Shown: positions 1 to 58,355 of the stretch, in pieces
How positions within the stretch are numbered: position 1 is the first letter of the stretch
Layout of the letters: each line of letters begins with the position of its first letter
NCBI RefSeq assembly: GCF_040938485.1
Contig: NW_027271250.1
Coordinates: 1,302,001-1,366,000, forward strand
DNA from: Diadema antillarum
Lineage: Eukaryota
Length of the DNA stretch: 64,000 bases
Reading direction: 5' to 3'
The notes under the pieces: model-generated
Database searches by the model: none
Seen by the model: the letters and a program-made list of their open reading frames with translations, nothing else
Told to the model about the DNA's origin: nothing
Position numbers and translations under genes: made by a program

Positions 1-3000
1 TCAGTTCAGGTGTTGTTACTTCTGGAGAAGTCACTGCAGGTGTCGTCACAATTCGAGTAGTTGATGCTGGTGATGTTACCGCCTGAGTCGTCAATGCAGG
101 TGTAGTGACTGCCAGTGTGGTCGTTGCAGGAGTGGTCATTTCTGATGTAGTTACAACAGGTGATGTCACAACAATTGTTGTTACTGCTGGACTAGTAACA
201 GCCTGAGTAGTCAGTTCAGGTGTTGTTATTTCTGGAGAAGTCACTGCAGCTGTTGTCACTATTCGAGTAGTTGATGCTGGTGATGTTACCGCCTGAGTTG
301 TCAATGCAGGTGTAGTGACTGCCAGTGTGGTCGTTGCAGGAGTAGTCAATGCTTGAGTGGTCATTTCTTTCTGATGTAGTTACAGCAGGTGATGTCACAA
401 CAACTGTTGTTACTGCTGGACTAGTAACCGCCTGAGTAGTCAGTTCAGGTGTTGTTACTTCTGGAGAAGTCACTGCAGGTGTCGTCACCATTCGAGTAGT
501 TGATGCTGGTGATGTTACCGCCTGAGTCGTCAATGCAGGTGTAGTGACTGCCAGTGTGGTCATTGCAGGAGTGGTCATTTCTGATGTAGTTACAGCAGGT
601 GATGTCACAACAATTGTTGTTACTGCTGGACTAGTAACAGCCTGAGTGGTCAATTCAGGTGTAGTCACTGCCTCCGTAGATACTGCAGGTGATGTAACTA
701 CTTGAGTGGTCAGTTCAGGTGTTGTAGCTGCAGGCGAAGTCACGGCATGTGAAGTGAATACTTGAGTGGTCACTGCAGGTGAAGTCACTTCCTGAGTCGT
801 CATTGCAGGTGTAGTCACAGCTTGAGTGGTCACTGCAGGTGTCGTTATGGCTGGTGAAGTAACAACAACTGTAGTCATTTTTGGAGTACTCACTAATGGT
901 GTTGTTACCACTTGTGTTGTAATTGTCACTGCTTCTGTTGACATTGCATTTGTTGTCAAACTTTGTGTTGTTCCTTCGGGAGTAGTCAAAGCCGATGTGG
1001 TAATGGCGGGAGTTGACAAGGCAGCTGTACTCATTTCTGGAGTTGTCTCTGGTCTGGTAAAGATAGGTAAGGTGGTTGTGTAACCATTCTCAAGAATCTC
1101 TGTTTGGCTTGGTGGAGTTGTTAGAATAGTAGGTGTTGCTGCACTGGTGGGATACAACTTTGATGTCAGTGCAGGTGTAGGTGTTTCTGTGCTAGACTCT
1201 GTGCTGACTGCCTGTGTTGTTATGTAAGAAATGGGAGATGAAGAGGGGGAGAAGTATCCTGTTGTTGACTTTGGGGATGTGGTCACTTCAGGTGAAGTAA
1301 TTGCTGGAGAAGTAACTGCAGGCGTGGTAACAGCTACTGTGGTCATTGCTGGAGTACTTGAAGTTGTTGGTGTAGTCAATTCAGATGTAGTCACAGCTGG
1401 AGAAGTTACTGCTGGCGAAGAAATAGCAGGAGTGGACACAAGGACTGTAGTTATTGCTGGTGTAGAAACTGCTTCAGTTGTCTGCACAGGGGATGTTACT
1501 GCTTGAGCTGTCACTGCTGGTGTAGTGACCACCAGCGTGGTTGTTGCAGGAGTGGTCAATGCTTGGGTGGTCATTTCTGACGTAGTTACAGCAGGTGATG
1601 TCACAACAACTGTTGTTACTGCTGGACTAGTAACAGCCTGAGTAGTCAGTTCAGGTGTTGTTACTTCTGGAGAAGTCACTGCAGGTGTCGTCACCATTTG
1701 AGTAGTTGATGCTGGTGATGTTACCGCCTGAGTTGTCAATGCAGGAGTAGTGACTGCCAGTGTGGTCGTTGCAGGAGTGGTCATTTCTGATGTAGTTACA
1801 GCAGGTGATGTCACAACAACTGTTGTTACTGCTGGACTAGTAACAGCCTGAGTAGTCAGTTCAGGTGTTGTTACTTCTGGAGAAGTCACTGCAGGTGTCG
1901 TCACCATTCGAGTAGTTGATGCTGGTGATGTTACCGCCTGAGTCGTCAATGCAGGTGTAGTGACTGCCAGTGTGGTCGTTGCAGGAGTGGTCATTTCTGA
2001 TGTAGTTACAGCAGGTGATGTCACAACAATTGTTGTTACTGCTGGACTAGTAACAGCCTGAGTGGTCAATTCAGGTCTAGTCACTGCCTCCGTAGATACT
2101 GCAGGTGATGTAACTACTTGAGTGGTCAGTTCAGGTGTTGTAGCTGCAGGCAAAGTCAAGGCAGGTGTAGTGAATACTTGAGTGGTCACTGCAGGTGAAG
2201 TCACTTCCTGAGTTGTCATGGCAGGTGTAGTCACAGCTTGAGTGGTCACTGCAGGTGTGGTTATGGCCGGTGAAGTAACAACAACTGTTGTCATTTCTGG
2301 AATACTCACTAATGGTGTTGTTACCACTGGTGTTGTAACTGTCACTGCTTCTGTTGACACTGCATTTGTTGTCAAAATCTGTGTTGTTGCTTCAGGAGTA
2401 GTCAAGGCAGATGTGGTAATGGCAGCAGTTGACAAGGCAGCTGTACTCATTTCTGGAGTCGTCTCTGGTCTGGTAAAGATAGGTAATGTGGTTGTGTAAC
2501 CATTCTCAAGAATCTCTGTTTGGCTTGGTGGAGTTGTTAGAATAGTAGGTGTTGCTGCACTGGTGGGATACAACTTTGATGTCAGTGCAGGTGTAGGTGT
2601 TTCTGTGCTAGACTCTGTGCTGACTGCCTGTGTTGTTATGTAAGAAATGGGAGATGAAGAGGGGGAATAGTATCCTGTTGTTGACTTTGGGAATGTGGTC
2701 ACTTCAGGTGAAGTAATTGCTGGAGAAGTAACTGCAGGTGTGGTAACAGCCACTGTGGTCAATGCTTGAGTACTTGAAGATGTTGGTGTACTCAATTCGG
2801 ATGTAGTCACAGCTGGAGATGTTACTGCTGGTGAAGAAATAGCAGGAGTGGACACAAGGACTGTAGTTATTGCTGGTATAGAAACTGCTTCAGTCGTCTG
2901 CACCGGGATGTTACTGCTTGAGTTGTCACTGCTGGTGTAGTGACCACCAGCGTGGTTGTTGCAGGAGTGGTCAATGCTTGGGTGGTCATTTTTGACGTAG

Positions 3001-5250
3001 TTACAGCAGGTGATGTCACAACAACTGTTGTTACTGCTGGACTAGTAACAGCCTGAGTAGTCAGTTCAGGTGTTGTTACTTCTGGAGAAGTCACTGCAGG
3101 TGTCGTCACTATTCCAGTAGTTGATGCTGGTGATGTTACCGCCTGAGTTGTCAATGCAGGAGTAGTGACTGCCAGTGTGGTCGTTGCAGGAGTGGTCATT
3201 TCTGATGTAGTTACAGCAGGTGATGTCATAACAACTGTTGTTACTGCTGGACTAGTAACAGCCTGAGTAGTCAGTTCAGGTGTTGTTACTTCTGGAGAAG
3301 TCACTGCAGGTGTCGTCACTATTCGAGTAGTTGATGCAGGTGATGTTACCGCCTGAGTAGTCAATGCAGGAGTGGTCATTTCTGATGTAGTTACAGCAGG
3401 TGATGTCACAACAATTGTTGTTACTGCTGGACTAGTAACAGCCTGAGTGGTCAGTTCAGGTGTTGTAGCTGCAGGCGAAGTCACAGCATGTGAAGTGAAT
3501 ACTTGAGTGGTCACTGCAGGTGAAGTCACTTCCTGAGTCGTCATTGCAGGTGTAGTCACAGCTTGAGTGGTCACTGCAGGTGTCGTTATGGCTGGTGAAG
3601 TAACAACAACTGTAGTCATTTTTGGAGTACTCACTAATGGTGTTGTTACCACTTGTGTTGTAATTGTCACGGCTTCTGTTGACATTGCATTTGTTGTCAA
3701 AATTTGTGTTGTTCCTTCGGGAGTAGTCAAGGCCGATGTGGTAATGGCGGGAGTTGACAAGGCAGCTGTACTCATTTCTGGAGTCGTCTCTGGCCTGGTA
3801 AAGATAGGTAAGGTGGTTGTGTAACCATTCTCAAGAATCTCTGTTTGGCTTGGTGGAGTTGTTAGAATAGTAGGTGTTGCTGCACTGGTGGGATACAACT
3901 TTGATGTCAGTGCAGGTGTAGGTGTTTCTGTGCTAGACTCTGTGCTGACTGCCTGTGTTGTTATGTAAGAAATGGGAGATGAAGAGGGGGAGAAGTATCC
4001 TGTTGTTGACTTTGGGGATGTGGTCACTTCAGGTGAAGTAATTGCTGGAGAAGTAACTGCAGGCGTGGTAACAGCTACTGTGGTCATTGCTGGAGTACTT
4101 GAAGTTGTTGGTGTAGTCAATTCAGATGTAGTCACAGCTGGAGAAGTTACTGCTGGTGAAGAAATAGCAGGAGTGGACACAAGGACTGTAGTTATTGCTG
4201 GTGTAGAAACTGCTTCAGTTGTCTGCACAGGGGATGTAACTGCTTGAGTTGTCACTGCTGGTGTAGTGACCACCAGCGTGGTTGTTGCAGGAGTGGTCAA
4301 TGCTTGGGTGGTCATTTCTGACGTAGTTACAGCAGGTGATGTCACAACAAGTGTTGTTACTGCTGGACTAGTAACAGCCTGAGTAGTCAGTTCAGGTGTT
4401 GTTACTTCTGGAGAAGTCACTGCAGGTGTCGTCACTATTTGAGTAGTTGATGCTGGTGATGTTACCGCCTGAGTCGTCAGAGCAGGTGTAGTGACTGCTA
4501 GTGAGGTCGTTGCAGGAGAGGTCATTTCTGATGTAGTTACAGCTGGTGATGTCATAATAATTGTTGTTACTGCTGGACTACTAACAGCCTGAGTGGTCAG
4601 TTCAGATGTTGTTACTTCTGGAGAAGTCACTGCACGTGTCGTCACTATTCGAGTAGTTGATGCAGGTGATGTTACTGCCTGAGTCGTCACTGCAGGTGTA
4701 GTGACTGCCAGCGCAGTTGTTGCAGGAGTGGTCAATGCTTGAGTGGTCATTTCTGATGTAGTTACAGCAGGTGATGTCACAACAATTGTTGTTACTGCTG
4801 GACTAGTAACAGCCTGAGTGGTCAATTCAGGTGTAGTCACTGCCTCAGTAGATACTGCAGGTGATATAACTACTTGAGTGGTCAGTTCAGGTGTTGTAGC
4901 TGCAGGCGAAGTCACGGAAGGTGAAGTGAATACTTGAGTGGTCACTGCAGGTGAAGTCACTTCCTGAGTCGTCATTGCAGGTGTAGTCACAGCTTGAGTG
5001 GTCACTGCAGGTGAAGTCACTGCCTGAGTCGTCATTGCAGGTGTGGTCACCTCTGATGTAGTTACAGCTTGTGATGTCACAACAATTGTTGTTTCTGCTG
5101 GACTAGTAACAGTCTGAGTGGTCAATTCAGGTGTAGTAACCGCCTCTGTAGATACAGCTGGTGATGTGAGTATTTGAGTGGTCAGTTCACGCGTAGTTAC
5201 AGCGGGTGATGTTACTGCAAGTGTAGGAGCTGTAATTTTTCTTGCGGTAA
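1..5250 (-). repeat. Coding tandem repeat: 15-bp (5-aa, T[TS]P[AE][VLM]) units organised into ~1.3-1.4 kb higher-order repeats
   Basis: Marker tggtgggatacaac recurs at 1145, 2561 and 3886 (spacing 1416 and 1325 bp). Confidence 0.95.
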
Positions 5251-5637
5251 CTGCTGGTGTTGTAACTGCTTGAGTTACCACTGGTGTTACCGAAGCTGCA
5301 GGTGTATTCTTTTCTGTAGTGATATGTAGATGTGTAGTTGGAGCTTGAGTGGCCTCTGGTGTTGTGATATTTGGAGGCAACGTGCTGACACTTGATGTAG
5401 ACACATGTGTAATTACAATTGATGTGGTAGTAGGATTATTTGTGGCTTGTGTGGTGACTTTTGTAGTTGGAGGAATTGTCAGCTGGATGCAACCGATTTC
5501 ATCCGAGGCAAATGCACAGTCAGCAACACCATCGCATCGTTGAGTGGCATTGATGCACATTGTTGAATTAAGACACCGCCACTGACTATCCAGACAGTTT
5601 GGTTTCACTGTTGATGGATGAGGATGTGGTGTAGTGC
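1..5637 (-). CDS. SSPO: SSPO-like exon 31 (LDLa 5 followed by >1800 aa Thr/Pro/Ser mucin-type repeats; two frameshifts; continues past window start)
   Basis: Acceptor tttttttttcag|GC at 5637; [36 protein letters not shown], then [10 protein letters not shown] repeats; ORF pieces 2867-5608, 216-2903 and the repeat frame again at 1-~365. Confidence 0.85.
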
Positions 5638-8600
5638 CTGAAAAAAAAAATATACATGAGCTGTTTTAATGACACAAATGCAGATAGACCCTTCCAGAAA
5701 CACATCCTCATGTATGAATAGGAATTCTGAGACCAGATTTTTTTGTTATTTAAACCTAGTGAAGTATGCATACATTTTTCAAGTTTGACAATCTACTGTT
5801 ATTCATCATTCCTATCATATATAATCTTAATTGATGCAATGCTGGTATCCACATCCCAATGCTTCAACACTGGACAACTTCTGAAAGGTCATGAAAGGGC
5901 AATTCCACTCAATGTTCATGTGAACTATAATGGTGAGAAGAGAAGACTTTTATTAAAATCCAACAAAACATGATGAAGCTATTGAACATTTAAATTTTCT
6001 ATGATTTCACGAAGCCACAAAATTAGTCACAGCTCTCCCAATGGTTTGTACACACTAACAGAAGTTGGGAAATTGGAGTTATTATGCAGAAGAGAAAATT
6101 TTGACATCTTGATCCCTATAGTAACCTGTCTCTTTAATTTCACACCATGAACAAATCACTTTCTCCACTTTCATGAGAATCTAAATGCAAGGTGGCATGG
6201 TTGTCCTACTTCCTAGATCTAGAGATGAATGCCTGAGAAATAGGTTTAAACATGTTGGGCCCTGACCTTCGGGCTCTATGGGGGACATCAGAACCTTTTG
6301 ATTTTTCCAATCCCTGTCCTCACAAATGATTGCTGCCATATTTGGTTGAAATCAGACCATGTGTATTTGAAGATGAGGAAAATGTTATAGTGCAAAGGAT
6401 AGCCAGGCAATGCACAACCGAAGACCGAAAAAAGTGATAGCAACAGATGTCAAATCTTGGAGAAGAGCTACAAATAATCCAGTTCACCTTTCTGATTTCT
6501 ATTTCGAATATCTTAAGTATCATTAGAATACTTTAAGCTATTCTCAGGAAATATCCTGGTGGCAAACCATTAACATGTGCAGCTGAATGAATGGCTATTC
6601 TGAAAACATATAACCTTTGGCACCATAATGTGTTACAGGCATACAATTCACAGAAGCATGATGTTCATTGTCTTGCACATAATTATGTCTGAGAAAAAGA
6701 ATTGATAAAAAGTGCATACCACAGTAGCTTTCATCGGACATGTCTCCACAGTCATTCACTCCATCACAAACGACACTGTTGTTTCCTCCGGGGACACACT
6801 GGCCATTGTTACAGGTGAACTCACTGGGAGCACAGGTGGCATTCCTGGGTGGTGTTGGGCTTGGAGTTTCTATTTCACAAGCAGAGGAAAGAATGCTTAA
6901 CAGAGTTAATACCAAAATGGGGAGGGGGGTCTGAACACAGCATGTCAAAGCAAGCTAAAAAAATCACACAGTGAATCAAAATCTGTTGAAAAAGAACAGG
7001 AAGCATGCTACAGCCATGCTTGTATTTTGCCAAGGGGCTGGCATATGAAAACAGGCTCATTATGGCATATATACATTTTAGTGTTCAACATCACAACGTC
7101 AACTGCTTTGTCTTTGTATGTCACATTCAATATAATTCTGGGAGGTGTTGTATTTCAGTTGTGATGCAGGGCCCCTTGGCAGAGCAGTTCCGAGTGAGCT
7201 GAAAGGGCTACCCTGATAACAGAAAACGGAATAAATAAATAAATAGATAAATAAATAGAAAAATGAATTCTAGTGTGTTCTGAAATAGCTGTATCTAATT
7301 TTTCCCCTCATTGTTGTTTTGTGAATGATATCATTTACAAAATGGGCATGCTGCTGACCCCTTTCAGTTCGCCCCCAGGTGAATAGCAATAGTCAGCAAA
7401 CAGTATCAACCAGGCACATTGTGACATACAAAGAAGGATTTCTCCCTGTGTCTGTTGACATGGTAGATCCTGACACCTGCCACTAAGACCCCCTATTAAA
7501 CAGCAGTGCTATGACATTCCTTACCACATCCTTGCTCATCACTGTTGTCTCCTTCACCACAGTCCACATCACCGTCACACACAAAGGATTCTGGGATACA
7601 CACACCCTCACTGCACTGGAACTCACTGGGACCACATGTGACTGCAACTATAAGTAAAAACATGAGGCAAAATATACAGATCTTTACTTGTTCCCATCCT
7701 GGGAAAAAGAAAGAGTGAAGAAAAGAAAAAAGCTGTTCAATTCTGACATCTAGTCTCAAACACAACTGAGTATACACTCTTGCAATAAGAAATTGTCTGC
7801 ATGTAGGTCCTTCTAGTTAATAGAAAGATTAAACGAGAACTTACCTGTTTGAAGTTTGATCTTTATTTTATGAGGGAGTTGGAGAAAGAATTCACAGTGA
7901 GAGCCCGCTCAACGCGCGCGCAGTCATACTTCGTAGCAACAAGATGTGACTTCTGTCAGAGTGGAAAGATTGAGAACTTACTTGAAGTTGATCTATACAT
8001 TTTGTAATAGTATTCATGCCATGGGAAGGGAGAGGAGGGACTGTGAATTCTTTCTCCAACTCCCTCATAAAATAAAGATCAAACTTCAAACAGGTAAGTT
8101 CTCGTTTAATCTTTTTTTTTTTATTTCGTGAGTTTACGCAAGAACTCACAGTGAGATTTTGTAGCACAGAAGTCACATTTGTTCCAACTGAACAAACTCA
8201 AGCATGCACAATGGCAAGCAAAATGTAAGCTCAAATTACCTTGGTCTGAGGCCATTATTCCCTCACAATGAGTTGTGACAGGCACTGTCCCTCTTCTTGT
8301 AGAGGTTTGTCGTAGAATTTACGGAATGTTCGTTCTTTTGACCAGCCTGCTTTTGCGAGGATCAGAGGAATAGGTGCATCCGCCCTGTTTGCTGCTGAGC
8401 TAGATGCTGCTCGGGTTGAATGTGCACTGAACATTGTGGTGTCAATGCCAGCGCCAGTCATGATTTCTTTGATCCATCGAGAAATTGTCTGTGCCGTTAC
8501 TCTCTTGAAAGGCTTGCGAAAACTAATGAAGAGATGACTTTCCTCTCCTCGGATCTCTTTGGTTCTCCGAAGGTAGGCCTTAATGTATGTAACTACACAC

Positions 8601-11600
8601 AAACGTCTGTCTGGGGGGTACGCTTTCAAAAGTACGTCCAATCCAAAATTCCCAGGTCTAGACTGCTTAAGATGTTCATTAACTTTGAATGACACCATAG
8701 ATTGTTTGAGAATCATGCTGTCTAGATTCAGGCAATGCAAAGTCTGTACCCTCTGGGTGGATATCAAGGCCAGTAACATGCACAGCTTCATTGTTAATTG
8801 CTTCAAGCTAAGCGAGTTAGCGGGAGCTAGACTTCTCAAATATCTAAAAACAATATTCACGTCCCAAATTTCCGAATACCGCGGCCTTGGGGGCCTGAGC
8901 TGGAACACACCTCTCATAAAACGAGAGAGAAGCGGATGAGTGCTGACAGTAAATTGTTCATCCTCTAACACTAGAAAGGTAGCAAGTGCACTCCGTGCTG
9001 AGTTAATAGCTGAATAGCTCAAGTTCTCTTCATAAAACATGTGTGTAAAAAACTCCAAAACAAAATTAATCTTGGCATGAAGGTGACTTTCCTTCTTAAG
9101 TGTACAAAACTTTCTCCATTTCCTTATATATGTACAATATTGTCTTTGGGTTGATGCCCTCCAAGATGCTGCCAAGATGTCCACCGTTCTGCTGCTCATG
9201 CCAGAGTTCTCGAACGGCAGCTTCAAAACCTGCAACATAACAGATCAAGGCAAGCGTGTAAAGGGTGCGGTTCCCCAGATACGGGTTGCGTAATCAAATT
9301 CCTGTGTCTAGGAATTAAGAGTGGTTCATCTTTAAGCATTCTCCTCATGCGAGGAAACCACGCTTGCGTAGGCCAGTTTGGGACAATCAAGAGACCATGT
9401 GCCTTGTCGTTTTCTATTTTTTGGAGACATTTGGGGATGAGGCAGAAAGGAGGGAATGCGTAGAAATACAGATCACCCCAATTCAGAGTGAATGCATCCA
9501 CAGAAACCGCATCTGGGTCAGGCAGCCACGTAACGTACGCAGGCAGCTGCTTATTGAGTCTGGACGCGAAAAGATCAATTTGGGGAGTACCACATTTCTT
9601 AGTGATATCAGTAAAAACTTTCTTATTCAGCATCCATTCTGTTCTGTCATTAAAATGACGAGATCTCCTGTCTGCTTCTGTATTGTCACGACCTGGTAAA
9701 TAGGCTGCTGTGATCCAGATATTCCTTTCCTTACACCAAACCCAAATGTCTCGTGCTGCCCTGTCGCAGGCTCGAGATTTAATGCCTCCCATATTGTTCA
9801 GGTAGGCTACAGCTGTTGTGTTGTCAGTTCTAATGAGCACATGTGTATCATGCAGGTGGCCGCAAAATGACTTCAAACCAAGCCCTGCAGCTAAGATTTC
9901 AAGATAGTTGATTTCATTGTTTAGAGCATGCACTATCTCCTGATCATCCCATCTACCGCCAGTTTCATTGCTTAAATCAGTGGCACCCCATCCTTGCCCA
10001 CTGGCGTCAGTACGTAGCTCTAAAGCTGGCCGATCTCGACTAATTGGTGCCGACTGGCAGTGAATGTTATTGAACCACCACATTAACTCCTGTTTAGAAG
10101 CTTCAGACAAATTCATAGGTCGATCAAAATGCCCTTTGCTTGATTTTAGTGCAAGAATTTTGTCTCTTTCTAGGTTACGATAGAAGAGGGGGCCATATTG
10201 AATAGCAGGGAAAGTAGCAATCAGTTTCCCAATGACCTGCGCCACCTGCCTGATAGTAGGGTTTTGTTTCCCTAGCAATTCCGCACATACTGCCCTGATA
10301 TTTTGACATTTCTCATGCGGGAGCGTTATAGTCATGCTTTCCGAATCCAAGATAAACCCCAAAAATTGGAGCCGTTGCTGAGGCTTTAGGATAGATTTCT
10401 CTGAATGAATGACAAAACCAAGGTCAGAGAGCAGTTTTGTGGTTGCTTGCACCGCTTCTAGTGCTTGTGATTCAGTTTCACCGATTATGAGAGTGTCATC
10501 TAAATACCCCACAACCAGGTGGCCTGCCTGTCGCAGCTTTGCGAACACCGGCTTCATAAGCTTTGTGAAGAGCCTAGGCGCTGTACTAAGGCCATTGGGG
10601 AGTACCTTAAATTGCCAACATTTCTCGTGCCAGACAAATCTCAAATACTTGCGATATGAGGGGTGAACAGGGACAGAGTAGTAGGCATCTCGAAGGTCGA
10701 TTGAGGCAAGGTAACAACCAGGGGAAATTAGGGTTGTAGCCGTATGGATGTTATCCATTTTGAAATGCTGTACATTCAGACTGTCATTGAGGTCCGATAA
10801 ATCTAAAATTAGGCGTATGTCCCCATTTTTCTTTGGGCGTGTAAAGATATTGGACACAAATTCTCCAGCCACATGCTGGCATTCTTCGATTACGCCTTTC
10901 TCGGCCAGTTTTCGAATTTCAATGTCAATCTTGCTCTCCTCAGCATTACCCACTCTGTAGTGGTAAGGCGGTTTACCTCTGTGAGGTGGGCTATACACCT
11001 CTTGAAATTCAAGTTTGTAACCGCTAATTGCATCAAGTATGAAAGGATCAGTGGTAATATGATTCCACTGTTTGCTAAAATGCCTCAATCGACCCCCAAC
11101 GGGCAGGTCTAATGGAACATCTACATGTTCAATGTCAAAAACTGACTGTACAGTGTGAGTAGATTGTGTATTTCCACAACAAGAGCTAGGCCTGCAACTT
11201 ACCTCCTTGGGTAGTGCAGTTACTTTCTCCGTGACACAGTGTTTGGCTTGGCTGGGGTTGCTGTCGAGTAGCTCTGCCCCCGGTTGTGCGCATGAGCTGG
11301 AGGTGGGCGAGTCTGCGTGTGCGGGGCTGAATGTCTGTATCCCCGCTGCTGCTGGCCTAAAAAAGGCCTGGATGTATCGCCAGCTGCGAGCCAGCCTGCG
11401 TTCCGATATTGCTTCCGGCTGAATCCACCGCTGGCCGTGCGCTTGTATGGGTGGTACGGCTGATGAGTAGATCTCTTAGCCTGGCCTTTAACCACACTAA
11501 AGGCAGCCCTATTCTCCTCCTTGAGATCTTTTACACGTTGTCCCAAGTCATCACCGAATAGAAACGCGGTCACGGGCGTAGTAGGCTTGCACAGATGTGC

Positions 11601-14600
11601 GTAAGCAGCGTTCATATCGGGCTTGATCAGCTCCTTTCTCAAGCAATTCATCTCGTAATTGGCATTACAGAGTAAAGCGAGTGCGTCCTGTTGCGCCTCG
11701 TTCAAGTCAGTAGGAAGAGTTTGTAGGAACGCACACAGCCCGCGGGTAAGAGATTTCTGTACTCTCTGCAGCTTAACGTCTCTGCTGCGCGTAGTCTGTG
11801 TCACATTATCCCAAATCACTGGATTGACTTTAGGGACTAGTAAGTTGGGGCAATTGCTCGGTGCTGGGTAGTTTGCCGCTGACTCTTCCATAGATTTTTC
11901 CTCCAGACAATGGGAGATGAGATAATTTGTAGAATTTGCCAATTCGTCATTGATAGGGTCGCCCACACAGGCGGAGACCGCAAATTTTGCAGCAAAGGAT
12001 GGCACTTGTACTGGCCGCCCCGTGAGCTCTGCGGGTGCGTAACCCGCTGCCGCCGCAGGGAAATCGCATTCATCCCCACTGTAGCTGCTGCCGCCGTGGT
12101 CGTCGTGCAGCGTACCGCGTGCTTGCGTACTATCGTCTGTAGCACACACATCCATGCCCCCAAACGGCACACCACCGTGGTTTTCTGCGGTACAAGCCGT
12201 GCCAACATGGCCGGCACGTAGTTGCTGTTGTTGGATACGAGTAGGCTGAGACGGCAGTATTTCCATGACCTTTTCAAACATGGATTCGAGTTCAGAAAGG
12301 CGGGAAAGCACCTCCGCGTCCGTCTTCTCTTTAGGGGGAGCTGCCTTCTTACTTAGGCCCGGTTTGGTGGGTTTTTTAAGGGTTTTCCCATTCCCTTCTT
12401 TCTTTGTTGGAGCCTTAATACTAGCCGGCGAACACTTGGGTTCATGATGCACGGCTGTAGTCACCATCGCCACGACAGACTTAGCTGTATGCAGGGCGCT
12501 CGTACTAGTGGTGCCACCCACGACAGGCTTAGCTGTATGCTGTGGGGGAGCGGAAAGCGGAATTTCCATCCCGCGATATCTCGTGAATAAAAATCCACTT
12601 CCGAAGCAAAGTCAGCTCTAACTGAGCTATAAATAATAACAATCCACAATATGATAAGATATTGCGAAGATGCACAGTTAAAAGGACGAATAAAACTGGA
12701 TTTAGACTGCGATGAGGGAACTTAGCCCCTCGTGCAAAACGTGCGAAGAAGCGATATGACTGCGCGCGCGTTGAGCGGGCTCTCACTGTGAGTTCTTGCG
12801 TAAACTCACGAAATAAAATGGCTTTTTGGCACTGAAATCATAGTATGTGATTTCGAATACTTAGTAGCAAAGGCATTGGAGAGATTGGCAGATTAAAAGT
12901 TGGGTATGATCCATCCATTACATCAGAGAGATGATCATATCTTTGCTTGGGGGTAAAAATATCAAAATCTTCCTCCTTCGAGTTCTTTGTTTATATTTGT
13001 TTATCAAATTGGACTTCAATCCAAGCAGGAAAGTTCTTATTTTCTATGCAGTAAAATGAGTATTGATCACCAACAGTGGGGCATGGTTAACTGTAAACCC
13101 AATCTTTGTTATTGACACAACCGTGCAGACCTCCACCTTCAAAGATCTTCTGAGGGTCGACCATTTTACTTAATTTACAAAATCGACACTTTGCACACAT
13201 TTCCAATTTCTCTAGACCTTTTACACAGAATTGGGACAAGGACTGCAAGATTACAGATTAAGTAGCACATGAAGTAAACATTTAGTTTGTCAGTTTTTTG
13301 CATGTAAACAATTAAGTGGATTCAGTTTATTAGACATCAAATTAACATATTGATATGCCTACAGTTACTGTTGTAAGTGGGTCACAGGCATACAAAGATC
13401 TAAAGTTTTTTTTAAAAAACAAATATACATCCGTAAGTTTTGCTTTTAACTTTTATGGAGCGGTTCCACATGTTTCCATTTGCTGTGTGTGAACCTACAT
13501 ATATGGGGTACACTCTTCTTTCAAAATGATAATCTAAATGCCACATTGGGAAGTTTAATTCAACAGGATATTTTGCATTATAAACTGGTACCATCTGTTC
13601 AAGTTTGCAGTAAGAGACTATGAGACGACATACCACAACCGACTTCGTCCGAAGAGTCCGTGCAATCTGGCGTGCCGTCGCAGTAAAAGTCGGCATCAAT
13701 GCAGAGACCACTGCTGGCACACTCAAACTCTTCTGGATCACACTCGTATGCTGGTTGAGAGAGACAAAAGGGGGTGATGCAGGAGACATATTGTGCATTG
13801 AAGCTGTAGACTCATCAACACAAGTGTGGTTGTGAGGTCTGTTTTACAACAGCCCTGTATATGACTTATAGAATGAGAGGCCTAAACAAATTCATCACAA
13901 CTAAACACAGCAACAAATGGTTACATCTTAGTATAACAATTATGCTAAAAATGTCCACAATACATATTTACAATTTGTGCTCATTATGCCAATAGTCCTA
14001 AACTAATGTACATCATACCACATATCTCTAACAGTTAATAAATGTAAGTTTTAAAACCAGACCATATTTTCACTTGATTTTCTAGTGAAGAGCATGCAGT
14101 TCTCAATCTAATTTAGATAATAGGGATGCTACAGTTTTGGTTGAGATGGGGCTTTAGATTTTATTCCTTTTGTTTATGTGTGAGATAATGAGAAACTACT
14201 TATGAAATATGAAAGAGCATACAACTTGAAGAGGAATTCAGAGTTTATTCGATGAAAATCGGTTTTGAGATGACTGAGATATCCAAAATAAAGTGGTCCT
14301 AATACAAGTGGGACCCATCTTTTGTTGGGACCACAACCAAAACTATACCATCCCTTAAAGTATGTAATCATCATTAAGAACAAAAAAATAAACAAATAAT
14401 CAAAATGACAACAGTCTGGACGAAGCTTCTGTCAGGATGCATTCATTTCACAATCATATTTGTGAATCTAAGACGGTATGGTCTAGATCATATCACAATA
14501 TTTAATTTTCACAAAGACATGGTCATATGATAATCTCATTTCTTTATACACATATGCAAAGGGTTTACAGGACATGTCATTTAAAAGATTAAACAAGACA

Positions 14601-17600
14601 TATGAATAACGATCAAATACATATATCTTTGACTCAATTCCAATTTTTAAGGTTTGACCTTAACCTCAACATCATGTCTGCCAAAGTTTGCTAAATCGAA
14701 GCTCCCCTGAAGAAAAGCTGCAGAAATATTCATTATTTTACATCTTTAGACTACACTCCTTCCCTGACAAATATTTCTGTACTAGTACATTGGTCCAACT
14801 AACAGGACCTGATGCACATGAAAATCAACAGCTGCCTGTACACAGAGAAGCTAAACATTAACGGACATGGTGCAAAAAATGTAAAAAACATAAAATGTCT
14901 TCTTTGTCATTCTTCATGAAATTAATACAAAATGAGTTCTTACTGCAGTCGGTCTCGTCTGAGTTGTCACCACAGTCATCCAATCCATCACACAGCCAGC
15001 CTAGTGGTACACAGGCACCATTGTCACACATGTACTCCAGCGGTGCACATGTTTCTGGAAAAAAAAAAAAAACCCACACGAACAGTTTACTGTAGATACG
15101 ATGCAGAATGCAATTCTTCCACCACTCATCGAGTATATGCACTAGCTGTTTGCTTCTATAGACAGCATTTGCATTAAATTCTGCAGATTCTGCATTAGAT
15201 TCTGCATTCTTTCTTTGCCATTTTGGGGGTTAATGATAAATGAAAAAAACGAAAAACAAACAGCCCAGCAAATAGAAGGCTTAATACAAACGTGAAGCAC
15301 AAATCAGGATGTATATCTATGTGCAAATGTCGGAAGTAATGATAATGATAATGAATAACACTAATATAGCGCTCGATACTGACCAGGCAGCCAATAGCTA
15401 TCAAAAATACATGACAAGAAGAAGTTTGTGTGATTAACATCAATGATAACAATTATGTCATCAAGGTCACAAATATTGATCTTCACCCCTGCAACATATC
15501 ATGTTGACTTGAAAGCAATGGCAATATTACAACACTAAATATCATCAAGAGATGCTTAGGACTCCTACCTTCACAGACTTCTCCAACACACTCCAGTTTT
15601 CCTGCGTGGCAAGTGCTGAAAAAGATAAACATACACATAGGATAGTTACTTGCAATTTAAGCTACACAATGTATCTACCAGCAACACTTTAGCTGGTTGT
15701 ACATGCTCATGTCTCTCACACTTTTCCTACATATCATGAGAAATATGTGATTACATTTCAATGTACTTTTTATTTGAACTGATTTGATTTATTCACAAAA
15801 TGAAAATATACATTCATACATACATATGTATGCTTTGCACATGAAATAATCATTTACAAGCTATATAAATTCATGAGTAGATTGCCATATGCAATTCAAG
15901 TTTGACTGGGGTGTCCATCAGATATGAATTATACATCTATATACACAAACGATATACAAAATACTGTATTATGCATGTTTAGTAAGTTACAGAAAATATT
16001 GAAGCATATGGTAGAAGGGGAGAGAAAGATTATTGCATGGTTTATGTTTGTAAAAAGAAACTGATATAAGTCATCAATGTAAAAACCTGTCTCATTAGCA
16101 AAAACTACAAAAAGCAATGTACAGGTCATGTCTGTGATTTTAAAACTTGATTGTCGAATACTCACCAGTTTTGACAATTGAGACTAGTAACAGTGCCAGC
16201 TGTGTATTCGACTCCGCCAAAGTAGCAGGGACACTCACTGACTTCAATACACTGTCCATCTGAGGAGGAAGTGAGTATCAAGGTGTAAAATTTGACTGGT
16301 GGCTCAAAGAGACTCACCAAGGAGTGTCAAGTTCACTCTCAGGGCATGCTCTCAGAATGGGTTCATCTCACACTCGGCCTATTCTACAATGCCTCCCAAA
16401 TCATTACCTTGTCATAGTCTGAACTACTTGGGGGGGGGGGGGGGGGGCTTTTAATGCTGCTGCATGATACCTGATATCTGTAAGCAGTTGCTCAGGCTAC
16501 TGACAACCAATATAAAATGGCATGACAAAATGGGTTTGCCCATCTGCATGATATGCAAGAACTTCAACAGCAAGAACAGCACACGCCACATAAACGCCTT
16601 TTGACACATTGATGATATATCATATAATCTACTAGCAAGACAGACTGACAGAGACTGACAGATGTACAATCGTAATCTTATTTTGGGGATAAGGCTGAAG
16701 TACGGCATAAAAAAGAGACCAGATGGACAAAGTTTTCAACATGTATATATGCACGCAGTCTCACCTTCTGATAAAGTACCATTTGGACAATGGCAGCCCT
16801 CAGCACAGTTCCCAAAACCAATCTGATCGCGGTCAAATGATGCACACGTGTCTACAGCAGTTGAGCCACATCCCTGGTACTCAAACCCACTGTCACACTG
16901 AACGGCTGGGATCAGAGATGGGGGGGGGGGGGGGGGTGAGACAAGCAAGAGACACACATGAATAAATATACATGGTACAGTGGGTAAAAAAATACATTTC
17001 ATTGCAGGATTTCTTGGTGAGAGGGAAAAGTAGGCTACGCTCTTGAAGATCTTACGATTCTCACACAGCCTTGGTTAATAAAGACATTGCTTCCAGGCAA
17101 AAGCAGTCTTCTACTGTTATAATTTAAAAACAACATACATGTAGATAGAAAGTATTCTTATTTCTCATCTTCTCTTTTTGTCAAGGTAAATGAAATGTAG
17201 CTAGACCTCAAACAATATGAGAACATTTAGTAACAGTTCCCACATATGGGTACTTCACTTGCTAAAGCAAATATTTACTGATTTCACATATCTGCACCAT
17301 CATGGTCAATTTCATACTGCAATTCTACTGTGTTTCACTATCTTCCAACTCCCTCTCTTCTTTCTTTAAGGAGTCGAAGAACCAAGTATCATCTGATGCA
17401 GTTGATTGTTGAAGCCTCTGTGAAATGCTCACAGCAAACAGCTTACCACATAGTTCTTGAGATCTCCACATGATGTCAAATCCATGCCTGGAGCACTCCA
17501 TGGCATAGGCAGCAATGGCAGTACAAAGACATTCACAATCCCCACCAAGATCACAGCTGCAGGGAACACAGAGAAAACCAGTGCAGCTACTTGTATAGTT

Positions 17601-32600: not shown

Positions 32601-35600
32601 ATTGCATCTTTTTATGCGACAGGGCCCTGGATTACTAACATAGGTGCTTGACAAAGGACAAATTTACCATTTTCCATGAAAGGAAATGAGACCATTGGAT
32701 TGTCATTGATGGAGACCATGTTCAGCTCTACTGTGATGACATCTAGCCCCAGGATGAACTCCAGACTCTGTCATAAAAGAATATATACAGCAAGGAAAGA
32801 GAATACAATGTCAAGACACAGACAAAGACATAGAGACTGGGACATGATTCATACTTATTAACATACAGGTTCAGTATGAGACAGAACATTATTGCTTAAT
32901 TCACATCATGATGTCTCCAAAAGGAGTAGGTAGCATAGAATGGGCATCTTGGGCAGCATACTGTTAGACAATCTGTTTTCTCTGACTGACAAATCAATTT
33001 CCCTTTGGCTCATGATAAACAAAGTATAATGCAGAGGAGAGGGCATAAAATGATGCAACAAGGACTCATATATTTCAGATGATATGTAACTATTATAACC
33101 ATCATGTTTGATGCATTTCAGTATTGCAATCATTTCACAACGTACAGCAATCATTTCACAACACCGTTACAATATGCAATTTAACCCAAATCCTGTTATC
33201 ACTAAAAAATGCCCGAATGTCAGAATCTGAAAAGATCATTTACTAACCTTAAGGAAATGAGATCACAAGTAAGAAGGATATGCAGAGATGAAGGTTCATA
33301 TGCAAAGGGCCATGAAGCTAATTCAAAAGCTGTTATGTACACAGAGGCTCATGGCAACATACGTACAGCAAGACCATTAGGAATTTCATTCTGCCCACAT
33401 CTGATTAAACTTACCTTGAAGCATGTAGAAAGGACATCACAGTCCTTGTTCCGGATAGTCACTTGCCAGGTTCCATCCAGGGCTGCAGCCAGGGTGTAGG
33501 AACAGGTTCCAGAGAAGCTATAGAATGTCCCATCAAAGGTCATAAAGTGATCACTACTCCAGGAGGCACATGTTGCTGATGTTCGCAGGGCAAGGGAGTT
33601 GTTCACTGCTGCAGCAACCTCCAGGGGGTGCTGGTGTGGATCAGTAAATGACCATGTTGCTGGCGGTGGTTGGGTTGTAAAAAACTCTGGCTCACCAACG
33701 TCTGTAGGGTAGTCAGACTCCTCATCTTGGGAACCTCCTGCAGATGAGTGGAACAGTGAGATCCAGCTTGGTACAGACAGCTCTGATGCAAGGTTTATAT
33801 CACTTTTTGAGGTGGATATGCCTGAAGTTGGTTTAGACTCTGTCAGTGGGGGGTTTGCAGTTGTGAACAATTCAGTGGGGACGACAAAGGGAGACCACAT
33901 GTCTATCAAAGACCGATAGGTATTTTGGTTGCCTTCAGACACTGACTCTTTTGGTTTAGAATGACTTCCACCTGAAGAGGTCTTTGAACTCTTTCCTGAT
34001 GTGTTATTGCTCTTCTTTGATGACTTCTCTCTAACGGAGTCAGCACTTGAAGACTTCTTTGAGTTAGATTTGCTTGCCTTGCCTGATTTCTTGGAGTCAT
34101 TTTTTCTCCCCTTGGAAGAAGAACCTTCAGATTCCTTAGACTCATTTTTACTGGCATTAGAAGAGTCTTTACTTTCCTTGGACTTGTCTGTGCCCTTTTC
34201 CTTTGAATTACGCTTTCTCTCTTTGGAAGAATTGTCACTCTCCCAAGACCTGTTCTTGCTAGATTCCTTAGACTTATTTCTACTGTGTGTTGAAGTTGAA
34301 TGTTTATCTTCTTTGGACTTGACCTTGCTAGATTCCTCGGAGTCATTCTTACTACCTTTAGAAGAACCTTTACTTTCTTCAGTCTTGTCTTTACTTGATT
34401 CATTCGAGACCTTCCCCTCTTTGGAAGATGAAACTTTCCTCTCTTTGGATTTGCTCTTACTTTTTTCCTCTGAGTTGTTCTTTCTCCCCTTGGAAGAAGA
34501 ACCTTCAGACTCCTTAGACTTGTTCGTGATGGATTCCTTAGACTCACCGTTAGCATCACTAGAAGAGCCTTTACTTTCCGTGGACTTGCCCTTGCTTTTT
34601 TCCTTTGAGTCGTTCTTTCTCCCCTTGGAAGAAGAACCTTCAGACTCCTTAGACTTATTCTTACTGCCTCTGGAGGATGAATCTCTATCTTCTTTGGACT
34701 TGCCCTTGCTAGATTCCTTGGAGTTGTCCTCACTGCCTTTAGAAGAACTTTTACCTTCTATAGTCTTATCGTTACTTGATTCTTTTGAGACCTTCCTCTC
34801 TTTGGAGGATGAAACTTTTCTCTCCTTGGATTTGTCCTTGCTTGACTCCTTGGAGTTATTCTTTCTCCCCTTGGAAGAAGAACCTTCAGACTCCCTAGAC
34901 TTGTCCTTACTAGATTCCTTAGACTTATTCTTACTTCCTCTAGAGGATGAATCTTTATCTTCTTTGGACTTGCCCTTGCTAGATTCCTCTGAGTCATTCA
35001 TACGGCCTTTAGAAGAACCTTTACTTTCTTCAGACTTATCTTTATTTGATTGTTTTGAGTCGACCTCCCTCTCTTTGGATGATGAAACTTTTCTCTCCTT
35101 AGATTTGTCCTTGCTTGATTCCTTGGAGTCATTCTTTCTCCCCTTGGAAGAAGAACCTTCAGACTCCTTAGACATGTTCATGCTAGATTCCTTAGACTTA
35201 TTCTTACTGCCTCTGGAGGAAGAATCTCTATCTTCTTCAGACTTGTCCTTGCTAGATTCCTCTGAGTCATTCATATGGCCTTTAGAAGAACCTTTACTTT
35301 CTTCAGACTTGTCTTTATTTGATTCTTTTGAGTCGATCTCCCTCTCTTTGGATGATGAAACTTTTCTCTCCTTAGATTTGTCCTTGCTTGATTCCTTGGA
35401 GTCATTCTTTCTCCCTTTGGAAGAAGAACCTTCAGACTCCTTAGACATGTTCATGCTAGATTCCTTAGACTTATTCTTACTGCCTCTGGAGGATGAATCT
35501 TTATCTTCTTTGGACTTGCCCTTGCTAGATTCCTCAGAGTCATTCTTACTGCCTTTAGAAGAACTTTCACTTTCTTTAGTCTTATCTTTACTTGATTTCT

Positions 35601-38600
35601 TTGAGACCTTTCCCTCTTTGGAGGACGACATTTTTCTCTCCTTGGATTTTTCCCTGCTTGATTCCTTGGAATCATCCTTTATCCCCTTGGAAGAAGAACC
35701 TTCAGACTCCCCAGACCTGTTCTTGCTAGATTCCTTAGACTTATTTCTGTCTCTTGAAGTTGAATCTTTGTCTTCTACAGACTTGCCCTTGCTAGATTCC
35801 TCCGAGTCATTCATATGACCTTTAGAAGATCCTTCACTTTCTGCAGACTTATCTTTATTTGATTCTTTTGAGTCAATCTCCCTCTCTTTGGATGATGAAA
35901 CTTTTTTCTCCTTGGATTTGTCCTTGCTTGATTCCTTGGAGTCATTCTTTCTCCCCTTGGAAGAAGAACCTTCAGACTCCCCAGACCCGTTCTTGCTAGA
36001 TTCCTTAGACTTATTTCTACTGTCTCTTGAAGTTGAATCTTTATCTTCTTTGGACTTGCCCTTGCTAGATTCATCTGAGTCATTCATATGATCTTTAGAA
36101 GCCCCTTTACTTTCTTTGGACTTGTCTTTGCTTGATGCTTTTGAGTCATTCTCCTGCTCTTTGGAGGATGAAACTTTTTTCTCCTTGGATTTGTCCTTGC
36201 TTGATTCCTTGGAGTCATTCTTTCTGCCTTTGGAAGAAGAACCTTCAGACTCCCTTGACGTGTCCTTGTTAGATTCCTTAGAGATATTCTTACTGCCTTT
36301 GGATGAAGAACCTTTACCTTCCTTAGACTTGTACTTGCTTGATTCCTTCGAGTCATTCTTTCTCCCTTTGGAAGATGAACCTCTATCCTCCTTCGAGCCT
36401 TCCTTATCATGAGAACTGCTTTTGCTATGTTTACTTTCATTTGAGTCAATGTTGCTCTCACTGCTTTTGCCTCGTTTTTCGATCAATGATATAAGATTTG
36501 AGGGTTCAGCATCTAGATTTAAACAGACATATCATGACAAACATATGGAATTATTAAATGATTTAGAGTGATGTAATTCTTTGAACTTAGCATATCCTTT
36601 CAAAAGATATCTAAAGGCACCATCTTCCCTATATATATTTTTTTTCATTTTCAATGCAATATACTAGAAATACCCAAGGGGCATAACCTTATTCATAGTG
36701 GCACTACAAACTCTATTTATATCAGGATATGAAATTAGTACTTTGGTGTTGAGCAAATGCCATATAAAGTATTAATCAAATATCTATTTTCCAACACAAA
36801 ACATAGTATGGTTTTCGATAATAATTTGAACAGAGAATCTATGCATGAAATAGCATTTGTAGCTGACCTTAAAGTGAATTATCTTAAATAGAACTCCAGT
36901 ACATCTGTGTCTAGATATTTTTGTTGTTTCATTTTTTATATTTGTAATTTCTATGGGCTGACGGCATCATGATTGTCTCTCAAGAATGAAAATATACAAA
37001 AACTGAGCATTGATATGAAATTGCTAGTGTGAATGATAAAATGTCTAAAATGCTGAATTTTTAACTATATGAAGACACTGCCATTACATTTTGTAAAAAC
37101 ATAATGAGCCACATGACATACAAAGCTTGGGGTGTGGTAACGTTTACGTGAGAATAAAACCTTACATGCATGTGGGCGTCTGTGTATGTATTGAACTTTG
37201 GTTAGATAATTTAAAGTAGCAATCATCAAAATAATATTTATACATCATGTAATGTACATCCTTGTGATAAAATTCTGCTTTGTCTTGTTTCATACTGAAT
37301 TCCAAAATCCCCATAGACTTAATACATGGGCCACCAGGTTTCCGTATGGAATGGGTTAAGAAACAAATAGAGAACAGCAGATTCAACAATTTTGAGATGA
37401 ACACCACGGGAACTAACACTTAACCAAAAGGGGGAAGTATGCATATTGGGTTTATAATGACTAGTAAGCAGATGATTGAAATGAAATAAGAGGGTTCAAG
37501 AGGGAAAAAGGTTAAGAGAAATAAGAGGGCAAAGGGAAGAGAGAAAGAGGATGAGAAAGAGGGAGAAAGAGAGGGAGAGAGATATGTGACTGGACACAAA
37601 AAATAAAAAGAATGCCAGTTTAGGATACACAAGGAAAACAATTAGCACAGTGGGAAAAGTAATAGCAGTTAAGAACAAAATACATGAAATAGAATATGGG
37701 AGGGTGTAATACACACAGACATTCTACATGTAACATAAAGGCTGAAACTAGAGAAGAAAGTAAACCTAGGGTATCAATATCTTAAAAAAACAAAAACAAA
37801 AGAGCAAAACAAAAAACCAAAGCACTGAACTGTCACAGTAAGACATCCAAGCTGTTGCAGATCTAATATTGACAGAGCTGCCACCTTTCTGCCTGTTTTT
37901 CATTCAAAGGTCTTCAGCCATACTACTTAATTAAATCTTGGATACAGTACACACAGTGTTTACTTACTCAATGGCTGATGTGCAAATATTGATAATTAGA
38001 TTTTGGTAGTAATTATAGGTCAAGGTCATTTCTCCTGGTCCTGTCTATTTTGGTAAATTAAAGATTATTGTAAGCTAAGCTTTTGACCACTGATTTAAAC
38101 TCAACACAAAGGAAAGGCCAGGAGACATATTAGTTTATGGGGATACATGACTTTAATACCAAAATTGTTCCAATCAACCCTCAAGAATGTACAGAAATGC
38201 AAACTCACATGTCAGAAATGCCAAGGACATGATGATGAATAATGTTTCTACAACTTCCATTTAACATTAAAATGGCACAAACAAACAACTTTTTTTTTTT
38301 CAGTCAAATTCAGTGTTCTTGCCCTGGAATCAGAATTTCTGTCATTGGAACAGGGGCAGCCAGTTTGTGTACAAGGTCAATGTTATCTTGAGTTGGTGTT
38401 GCTTAAAGGGTTCAAGAATGGACAGGCAAGCTTTCCAGTATCAATTACTAAATCTGCATCAGTCATGAATGCCTTTAGTACTGACAGCTTGCTGGATGAC
38501 CACCATAAAGACAAAAATATATAATTTGTGGATAGTATTTACCAAAGATTATCTACTTGTTTGTGTTTGGAAGCATCAGGCCTCTCATTTGTTATGTCTA

Positions 38601-56957: not shown

Positions 56958-57184
56958 AGTGGCGTACGGTGGGTCGAAACATGGGGGGAACCATAAAGTA
57001 ATTTTGACGGTCTGTATGCTTGTGCGTGTGTGCGTGAGCAATAATGGGACTACAATACATTACGGAATGTGATACATTCAACAACGCAGTCATTGAGGAA
57101 CATTGTAAGTTTTCCTTACATGGATTATGGAATGATGGTGTGAAACGATCGACAAATTAGATACTGTCAGCAACATAAGGTGAA

Positions 57185-57900
57185 TGGCATAACAATAAAA
57201 TGCGAGCGAGCGAAGCGAGCGAGCTTGAAAATTTTGATATTCTACAGTTCCAAAACTGGAGTTTTAATTGTAGCTATATACATATTTCGCTTTGAAATAA
57301 ATGGGGGCGCATCGGGCGCAACTGCTGGCAATTATTGGCAGCAACACTAGGAGAATGGCATAACGATTCAATGCGAGCGAGCGAAGCGAGCAAGCTTGAA
57401 AATTTTGACATTCTACAGTCCCAAAACTGGGGTTTGTAGCTTTATCTTTCACTTTGGAAATAAATGGGGCGGCGCATCGGGCGCAACTGCTGGCAATTAC
57501 TGGCAGCAACATTAGGAGAATGGCATAACGATTCAATGCAAGCGAGCAAAGCGAGCGAGCTTGAGAATTTTGACATTTTACAGTCCCAAAACTCCCGTTT
57601 GTAGCTATATCTTTCGCTTTGGAAATTAAGGGGGGGGGGGGCATCGGACGCAACTGCTGGCAATTACTGGCAGCAACATTAGGAGAGTGGCATAACGATT
57701 CAATGTGAGCGAGCGAAGCGAGCGAGCTTGAAAATTTTGACATTCTAGAGTCCAACAACTGCCGTCGTAGCTATGTTTTTCGCGTTAGTAATTAAGGGGG
57801 AGGCGCACCGGGCTCAACTGCTGGATGCGAGCGAGCGAAGCGAGCGAGCTTGAAAATTTTGACATTTTACAGTCCAAAAGCTGCCGTTTGTAGCTTTATT
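57185..57900. repeat. ~165-170-bp tandem repeat, ~5 units, inside the hAT-like element
   Basis: gcgagcgagcgaagcgagcgagcttgaaaattttga at ~57202, 57373, 57538, 57705 and 57827. Confidence 0.9.
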
Positions 57901-58355
57901 TTTTCCCTTTTATTCATATAGATCTACATATTTATTTTGTTTTCTTTGTTTATTCATTTATTTTTATTATCATTATTTCTATTTGTTTATATTTTTTTTT
58001 TTGGGGGGGGGGCTTTTTGGGGGGGCAAAAATGCGTTTTGCCCCCCCCCCCCACTTTTTGGATTGGGGGGGGGGGGGCGGCCGCCCCCCCCCCCTACCCC
58101 CCACTTCCGGCGCCTATGGTGCAGGTCACTGGTTTGAATCCACTGATGGCAACGGTTGTACCTTATTCCGGGATCTTATTTTAAACAATAGTCTATACTC
58201 CTTCTGAGTGCAAGGGACTTAAACCGTTCGTCCAGTATAATAGCTTGCTCATAAGCATTTAAGTGCTTTCTTAATCATCATATATATACACAAGTAATCC
58301 AACCAAACAAGGAGACGCAAGCTCTGTCACTGTTATACTCCGTCCGAATCTCTTG

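Follow-up and report, generated by a model that had tools for sequence, protein, structure and literature searches.

DIRS1-like retrotransposons, as defined in the available text of Piednoel et al. 2011 (PMC3266345), are recognized by three open reading frames (ORFs), encoding gag, reverse transcriptase (RT)/RNase H (RH)/methyltransferase (MT) and a tyrosine recombinase (YR), together with inverted terminal repeats, an internal complementary region (ICR) and NTT-type ends. Those portions of the DIRS literature that were accessible (PMC3266345, PMC6681497, PMC9210276, PMC7192593) describe overlaps between the ORFs, with no slippery site or native splice. Here we analysed a 64,000-nt stretch of the Diadema antillarum genome (the window; contig NW_027271250.1, positions 1,302,001 to 1,366,000), in which a complete DIRS1-like retrotransposon of 5,001 bp, with ATT at each end, occupies 12819-7819 on the minus strand. 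It has the same three ORFs, inverted terminal repeats, ICR and ATT ends as the described elements, and thus fits the class; the RT/YR overlap is barely present, the two ORFs sharing only 22 nt. The element probably makes three proteins from a single start codon, namely, Gag, Gag-RT/RH/MT resulting from a ribosomal frameshift on unspliced RNA, and Gag-YR resulting from the same frameshift on spliced RNA. Comparison with relatives makes the -1 frameshift, at 11364-11358, very likely; given the frameshift, the splice step is quite likely as well.

The closest parallel to the predicted frameshift is HIV-1 gag-pol, which, in the accessible part of PMC3458567, has the same U UUU UUA, read in gag phase, a pol-like ORF in the -1 frame and a G after the heptamer. 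By contrast, the window element lacks a comparable stable stem-loop at the usual spacing, its gag is unrelated, and its integrating enzyme is a tyrosine recombinase encoded in a third frame and likely reached by splicing. The site would work like the retroviral gag-pol frameshift, by resemblance and not by membership. The label 'HIV-type', given to the signal in a sequence-only reading of this DNA, suits the heptamer and does not extend to common descent or shared structure, neither of which is suggested by anything found here. Another parallel is alphavirus 6K/TF, for which the consulted portion of PMC2569925 reports a conserved UUUUUUA with 3′ stimulators that are diverse between species, comparable to the unconserved 3′ folds of the DIRS elements; this site, too, was first found by conservation. 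That shift, however, lies in a viral structural gene and was confirmed by mass spectrometry (PMC2569925), whereas the DIRS site is predicted from sequence. Within YR retrotransposons, a programmed -1 frameshift from RT/RH to YR was proposed for Ngaro by Poulter and Butler 2015, as quoted in the available part of PMC13003380. Ngaro belongs to another superfamily and the shift is placed at the RT-to-YR junction, whereas the window element is predicted to shift from gag to ORF2 and likely reaches YR via splicing. Retrotransposons such as Drosophila copia balance Gag and Pol by splicing, with the spliced RNA making Gag. The predicted intron of the DIRS element is similar to that of copia in removing the enzyme-coding part of the genomic RNA, but the spliced RNA would make a second frameshift-dependent enzyme fusion and not Gag. 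A literature search for DIRS together with slippery sites or recoding found no report, the Ngaro proposal being the only related statement; the main DIRS papers were outside its reach, so a gag-ORF2 frameshift may have been suggested earlier. The combination of frameshift and splice was likewise not found in the searchable literature, which did not cover Repbase entries or supplements.

The coding features of the element and the predicted frameshift site are as follows.

11220-12569, minus strand: ORF1 (gag), 449 aa counted from the first ATG, which NCBI model P0242 also takes as start; without a Pfam family
9223-11475, minus strand: ORF2 with RT (YLDD), RNase H-like and methyltransferase-like regions, 750 codons
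8255-9244, minus strand: ORF3, tyrosine recombinase (Phage_integrase, E = 1e-08; Phage_int_SAM_4, E = 3.7e-05)
11358-11364, minus strand: slippery heptamer of the U UUU UUA type, read in gag phase; predicted from sequence and conservation to be the -1 frameshift site

ORF1 is named gag by position only, as in the available text of PMC3266345; from stop to stop its frame spans 12611-11220 (463 codons). RT and YR both score above the Pfam cut-offs; in ORF2, RT is matched by RVT_1 (Pfam; E = 1.8e-22, residues 215-376), while the methyltransferase region has a weak PCIF1_WW match, and Dam-type methyltransferase and RNase H Pfam families are found on homologues. Re-reading of the sequence bears out two earlier statements about ORF2, namely, that it is open for 256 nt into gag in the -1 frame, and that it has no ATG before the RT core: the earliest in-frame ATG, at 10758, encodes the Met of HFKM (residue 240) and falls within the RVT_1 match. 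Between 11475 and this ATG there are 10 out-of-frame ATGs, and the ORF2 frame upstream of RT contains twelve near-cognate codons.

The heptamer T TTT TTA at 11364-11358 is supplied by the gag codons CCT TTT TTA GGC (P-F-L-G), and both its position and its gag phase, as given by the sequence-only reading, hold. It has the form X XXY YYZ when read in the zero frame, and ORF2 occupies the -1 frame, in agreement with the definition in the accessible part of PMC3458567. Based on chance rates derived from RT and gag codons of relatives, any canonical in-phase heptamer would be expected in the 84-codon overlap of the window alone with p of about 0.28, and U UUU UUA with p of about 0.003. The heptamer is present in 40/40 own-genome loci of the window's family, including loci at 80-87% identity; most of the 40 are near-identical, so they add little. 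Two of these copies, L017 and L021, share a change at window position 11477 that creates a stop in gag about 110 nt upstream of the heptamer.

For a stronger comparison, 60 further own-genome loci, the best 80 of 547 metagenome loci, 10 earlier loci and the window were grouped into 55 RT clusters at 85% amino acid identity. Eight were left out, comprising in-frame gag-RT fusions (L106, L114, L133, L134), broken or cut loci (L033, L034, L131) and a sublineage of the window's family (L031), and the remaining 47, with RT mostly 43-64% identical to that of the window, were tested. An in-phase canonical heptamer lies inside the overlap in 43/47 clusters (7.4 expected), and U UUU UUA in 34/47 (0.08 expected). 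Heptamer matches in the overlaps are in phase in 51 cases and off phase in 10 (p = 8e-16). Codon fixation of F-L across DIRS1-like families had been named by the sequence-only reading as a check, and the frameshift inference passes it: F-L in the gag frame is written T TTT TTA in 34/34 cases within overlaps, compared with 1/109 in RT and 0/30 in upstream gag, which indicates that the motif is kept and not the dipeptide. Clusters without F-L mostly have another canonical heptamer. A AAA AAC is used by five clusters, with at least three changes forced by the starred branches of a quick tree, and G GGU UUU by one clade of three clusters in the same tree. The -1 frame opens 0-153 nt upstream of the heptamer, and in five clusters within 6 nt of it; there is no Met before RT in 30/47 clusters, and there is one in 17/47. 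A functional frameshift site predicts both that a heptamer is kept across gag tails that cannot be aligned and that it is swapped between canonical forms. The comparison thus supports the earlier proposal of a -1 frameshift linking gag to RT, as a prediction from sequence.

The same scoring rules were applied to a held-out set of 44 later own-genome loci, which formed 13 new clusters. Ten of the 13 have an in-phase heptamer, and the three misses are two broken copies of heptamer-bearing families and one distant element. Also in this set are three distant own-genome YR elements with 35-40% RT identity (L207, L213, L216), in which A AAA AAC stands directly before the gag-frame stop; no splice donor was found after the gag stop in these three. 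Among viral contigs, 146 pattern matches included no relative. In one clade (L106, L114, L134; protein P0099), gag and RT share one frame and no frameshift is present; L114 and L134 retain a phase-0 GAG|GTAAGC at the end of gag, and the upstream acceptor motif described below is retained by all of them. In this clade splicing alone could yield Gag-YR.

Programmed frameshifting commonly involves a stimulator 3′ of the heptamer, and one candidate is present in the window.

11321-11346, minus strand: candidate-stimulator hairpin, 6-bp G-C stem with a 14-nt loop, 11 nt 3′ of the heptamer; weakly supported

The arms of the stem, GCGGGG (11346-11341) and CCCCGC (11326-11321), form part of the minimum free energy fold, and the stem described by the sequence-only reading therefore exists and folds. 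Its role as stimulator does not follow, in agreement with the caveat attached to that assignment. Compared with shuffled sequences, four windows 3′ of the heptamer give z from -0.33 to -1.76, and the fold of the 60 nt downstream, which had been put forward as a check, gives z = -0.76, so the stem is not beyond chance. A fifth window, which includes the heptamer, gives z = -2.85, and this fold also pairs GGCC flanking the U-run. In the 87% subfamily L031/L032 all six pairs are kept and the spacer is 8 nt, while the outer pairs are lost in L033 and L034 and one pair is changed in L037; no compensatory change was seen among the own-genome copies compared. We consequently rejected the 6-bp stem as an established stimulator: it is unproven, with z not beyond shuffles, erosion and no compensation. 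In the relatives, the 60 nt 3′ of the heptamer are slightly more stable when folded than their shuffled versions (mean z of -1.33, compared with -0.12 upstream) and have no common structure. Typical spacing between heptamer and stimulator is 5-8 nt, and 7-9 nt is best for one 6-bp-stem pseudoknot on U6A (both from the accessible part of PMC3458567).

The earlier picture, confined to a frameshift from gag to RT, is retained for the frameshift and is incomplete, because it overlooked a conserved splice-donor motif, GAG|GTAAGT, 17 nt 3′ of the gag stop. The predicted splice features are the following.

11197-11205, minus strand: predicted 5′ splice donor GAG|GTAAGT, exon ending at 11203; phase 0 in ORF2; used in NCBI models P0242 and P0243
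9230-11202, minus strand: predicted GT-AG intron of 1,973 nt, removing RT/RH/MT; from motifs and NCBI models
9230-9250, minus strand: predicted 3′ splice acceptor ending in TTGCAG, next exon from 9229; phase 0 in the YR frame

Donor and acceptor match the GT-AG consensus in compatible phase. Donors were scanned for with a fixed 9-position score, at a threshold of at least 7/9, over the first 60 nt beyond the gag stop and, for comparison, in control windows. Such a donor is found in 42/47 clusters compared with 91/1330 control windows; 40/42 are in phase 0 of ORF2, and 41/42 lie no more than 44 nt from the gag stop. The residues encoded by the donor vary (V-S, V-G, V-R, V-N, V-C), and the serine of V-S is AGY in 23/23 cases, which together suggest that the constraint acts on nucleotides. 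At the other end, TTGCAG is present at the start of YR in 13/13 clusters of the window's clade with YR sequence; the YR frame in this near clade is closed 8-61 codons upstream, and only 3/13 have an upstream ATG. The other clade mostly lacks TTGCAG; in its place, a pyrimidine-rich AG lies about 75 codons further upstream, and the YR frame is mostly open from that point; the serine of FPPF-S at this place is AGY in 22/23 parsed cases, compared with a background of 24%. This count omits the misparsed L090, L115, L126, L134 and L141, in four of which the AG is visible, and L130, L132 and L150, which lack the upstream AG, have another phase-0 acceptor candidate where the YR frame opens. In the held-out set, a phase-0 donor (scores 6-8) is combined with YCAG at the YR start in every one of the five new intact families of the near type.

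The junction 11203|9229 was noted from the sequence before P0242 and P0243 turned up. These two NCBI gene models, which belong to the window's family and are 98-99% identical to the window YR, join ORF2 (...LPKE) to YR (VLKLP...) across an intron at 11202-9230. The Amphiura models P0170 and P0241 (XP_072032829.1 and XP_072043497.1) and the Montipora model P0249 also join a peptide resembling the start of ORF2 to YR, so that five models in three named species have this join.

Under the proposed scheme, translation would start at 12569, and most ribosomes would stop at 11222, giving Gag of 449 aa. A minority would slip by -1 at 11364-11358, with a trans-frame sequence ...SRPF-L/F-RPAAAG..., and bypass the gag stop. 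On unspliced RNA these ribosomes would continue through RT, RNase H and methyltransferase to give a product of about 1,115 aa. On RNA spliced from 11203 to 9229, 53 codons in the -1 frame would be followed by in-frame entry into the recombinase, giving a Gag-linker-YR protein of about 780 aa. The frameshift would thus set the ratio of Gag to enzymes, and splicing that of RT to recombinase. With 41/42 donors no further than 44 nt from the gag stop, the spliced RNA would respect the limit of roughly 50 nt for escape from nonsense-mediated decay. It seems reasonably likely that many DIRS1-like retrotransposons have a single -1 frameshift upstream of an alternatively spliced intron and make both enzymes only as frameshifted Gag fusions, a two-level switch whose slip site and acceptor would have been replaced between lineages while its logic was kept.

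Several observations weigh against the frameshift as proposed. The clusters are kin, and 43/47 are therefore not independent events; L103, L113, L127 and L128 have no heptamer by the scoring rule, the overlap being nearly nil in L128; z of the 3′ fold is below -2 in only 14/43 relatives (upstream, 2/43); and the window hairpin is weak, with its spacer of 11 nt exceeding the typical 5-8 nt. Instead of a frameshift, splicing could join gag to the ORF2 frame, through a 3′ splice site TTTTTTAG|G or through upstream introns: G follows U UUU UUA at 27/34 sites, giving TTTTTTAG, and P0242, P0243, P0170 and P0241 all enter the ORF2 frame via a modelled intron. We consider this very unlikely, since T follows at 7/34 sites, nine more clusters have only another heptamer, 16/43 lack TTTTTTAG, and another AG lies 11 nt upstream of the site in the window. 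Moreover, the modelled upstream introns differ between P0242 and P0243 and have purine-rich, and thus poor, acceptors; such gag-to-ORF2 introns look like the gene finder's way round a frameshift. A polymerase that adds an extra U in the U6 run during transcription would also fuse the frames, and contig L133, with a seventh T at the heptamer and gag-RT in frame, as well as the A6 run in five clusters, could be understood in this way. Six bases, however, are a short run for polymerase slippage, the G GGU UUU used by one clade does not form a long homopolymer, 51/61 matches have their runs ending in X XXY YYZ phase, and the extra T of L133 could stem from a mutation or from faulty assembly, which makes this explanation highly improbable. 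No more credible is a start of ORF2 by itself, either from a near-cognate codon or through internal entry, with the heptamer being incidental: despite the twelve in-frame near-cognate codons before RT in the window and the Met before RT in 17/47 clusters, it leaves the 34/34 codon choice and the heptamer swaps unexplained, and no start codon position is common to the clusters.

A more serious alternative, although an unlikely one, accepts the frameshift to Gag-RT and holds that the donor is not spliced to YR, which would come from its own start or from a shorter RNA, the donor motif having another job such as U1 binding to suppress early polyadenylation. The points in its favour are also those that weigh against the splice step. 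An ATG at 9238, two codons before the acceptor, means that the window YR could be made alone, and gene calls for many YR homologues can begin with a Met at that location. In the near clade, the acceptor shares nucleotides with a conserved Cys-Arg dipeptide of ORF2, itself able to yield TGCAG. No intron-less genomic copy was found among the 40 own-genome matches, with 0/40 ending at the donor and 0/40 beginning at the acceptor. In addition, the NCBI models are predictions, also with upstream gag-to-ORF2 introns that differ between them. Among the joints listed for contigs of six runs, whose type is not on record as RNA and whose depth is about 2-16 except for X6, none falls at 11203/9229 or within the heptamer, which counts neither way. 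Against the alternative, a U1 site need not hold the ORF2 phase, yet phase 0 is kept in all but two of the 42 donors; 10/13 near-clade YRs have no upstream ATG; between clades, the acceptor changes position in step with the stretch over which the YR frame is open; and the ORF2-start-to-YR join recurs in the five models. Splicing from the conserved donor to YR, downstream of the frameshift, is the more probable reading.

The analysis provides exact, testable sites for both the frameshift and the splice step. If the scheme is true, the recombinase would be a Gag fusion, which would explain its access to the particle and the cDNA. Among the relatives there are dozens of naturally occurring U UUU UUA, A AAA AAC and G GGU UUU heptamers whose 3′ sequences are unrelated, a resource for studies of stimulators, and the A AAA AAC-stop junction of L207, L213 and L216 is compact and a good candidate for a reporter. 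Caution is also due with gene models of these elements, which appear to bridge the frameshift by doubtful introns.

The ends of the element were read in the window copy and in six other copies, and its non-coding parts are listed here.

7819-12819, minus strand: whole DIRS1-like element
12755-12819, minus strand: left terminus with the left inverted terminal repeat, from the inverted pair and the ATT end
7819-7928, minus strand: right inverted terminal repeat and right extension, from inverted-repeat pairing and read sequence
8040-8155, minus strand: ICR, complementary to both termini, from the inverted pair and read sequence

The terminal repeats are inverted and not split direct repeats (7876-7928 and 12755-12807, 91% identity), and the ICR and right terminus form a further inverted pair (7819-7898 and 8040-8119, 98% identity). 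The circular junction in the ICR, which in DIRS1-like elements is a 3-bp motif matching the NTT ends, is AAT in 4/4 other copies read; in the window copy the corresponding place (about 8110-8125) is a plain A-run. A second donor-like motif, CAG|GTAAGT, occurs in the right terminus (7848-7838, minus strand), with its complement in the ICR, and 11/22 clusters combine a GGTRAG motif 3′ of YR with a complementary motif, a count made without a control.

Among 43 own-genome candidates there are 40 matches, 33 of them full-length at 97-100% identity, and the family is young. The window YR is 98-99% identical to two NCBI proteins that carry the label Diadema antillarum. DIRS1-like elements are expected to insert without target-site duplication; in the copies compared, the flanks differ except for the terminal ATT, and tandem copies share one ATT. 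All six longer copies read (L035-L040) have a head-to-tail junction with a neighbouring copy, with one ATT in common, and either tandem arrays or insertions into the ends of the element itself seem to be frequent.

Exon-sized LDL-receptor class A (LDLa) repeats (PF00057) lie on both sides of the element and on the same strand (6595-6954, 7496-7816 and 14858-15229, minus strand), which suggests that it likely occupies an intron of a host gene with LDLa repeats, in the sense direction. If so, its splice sites could serve the transcript of that gene. Elsewhere in the window, positions 1-5900 contain a long repeat with a 15-nt period that, on a by-eye protein reading, resembles mucin-type Thr-rich coding sequence on the minus strand; a repeat with a 69-nt period at 34000-36450 resembles Ser/Lys-rich coding sequence by the same kind of reading, and a 165-nt tandem repeat occupies 57130-57920.

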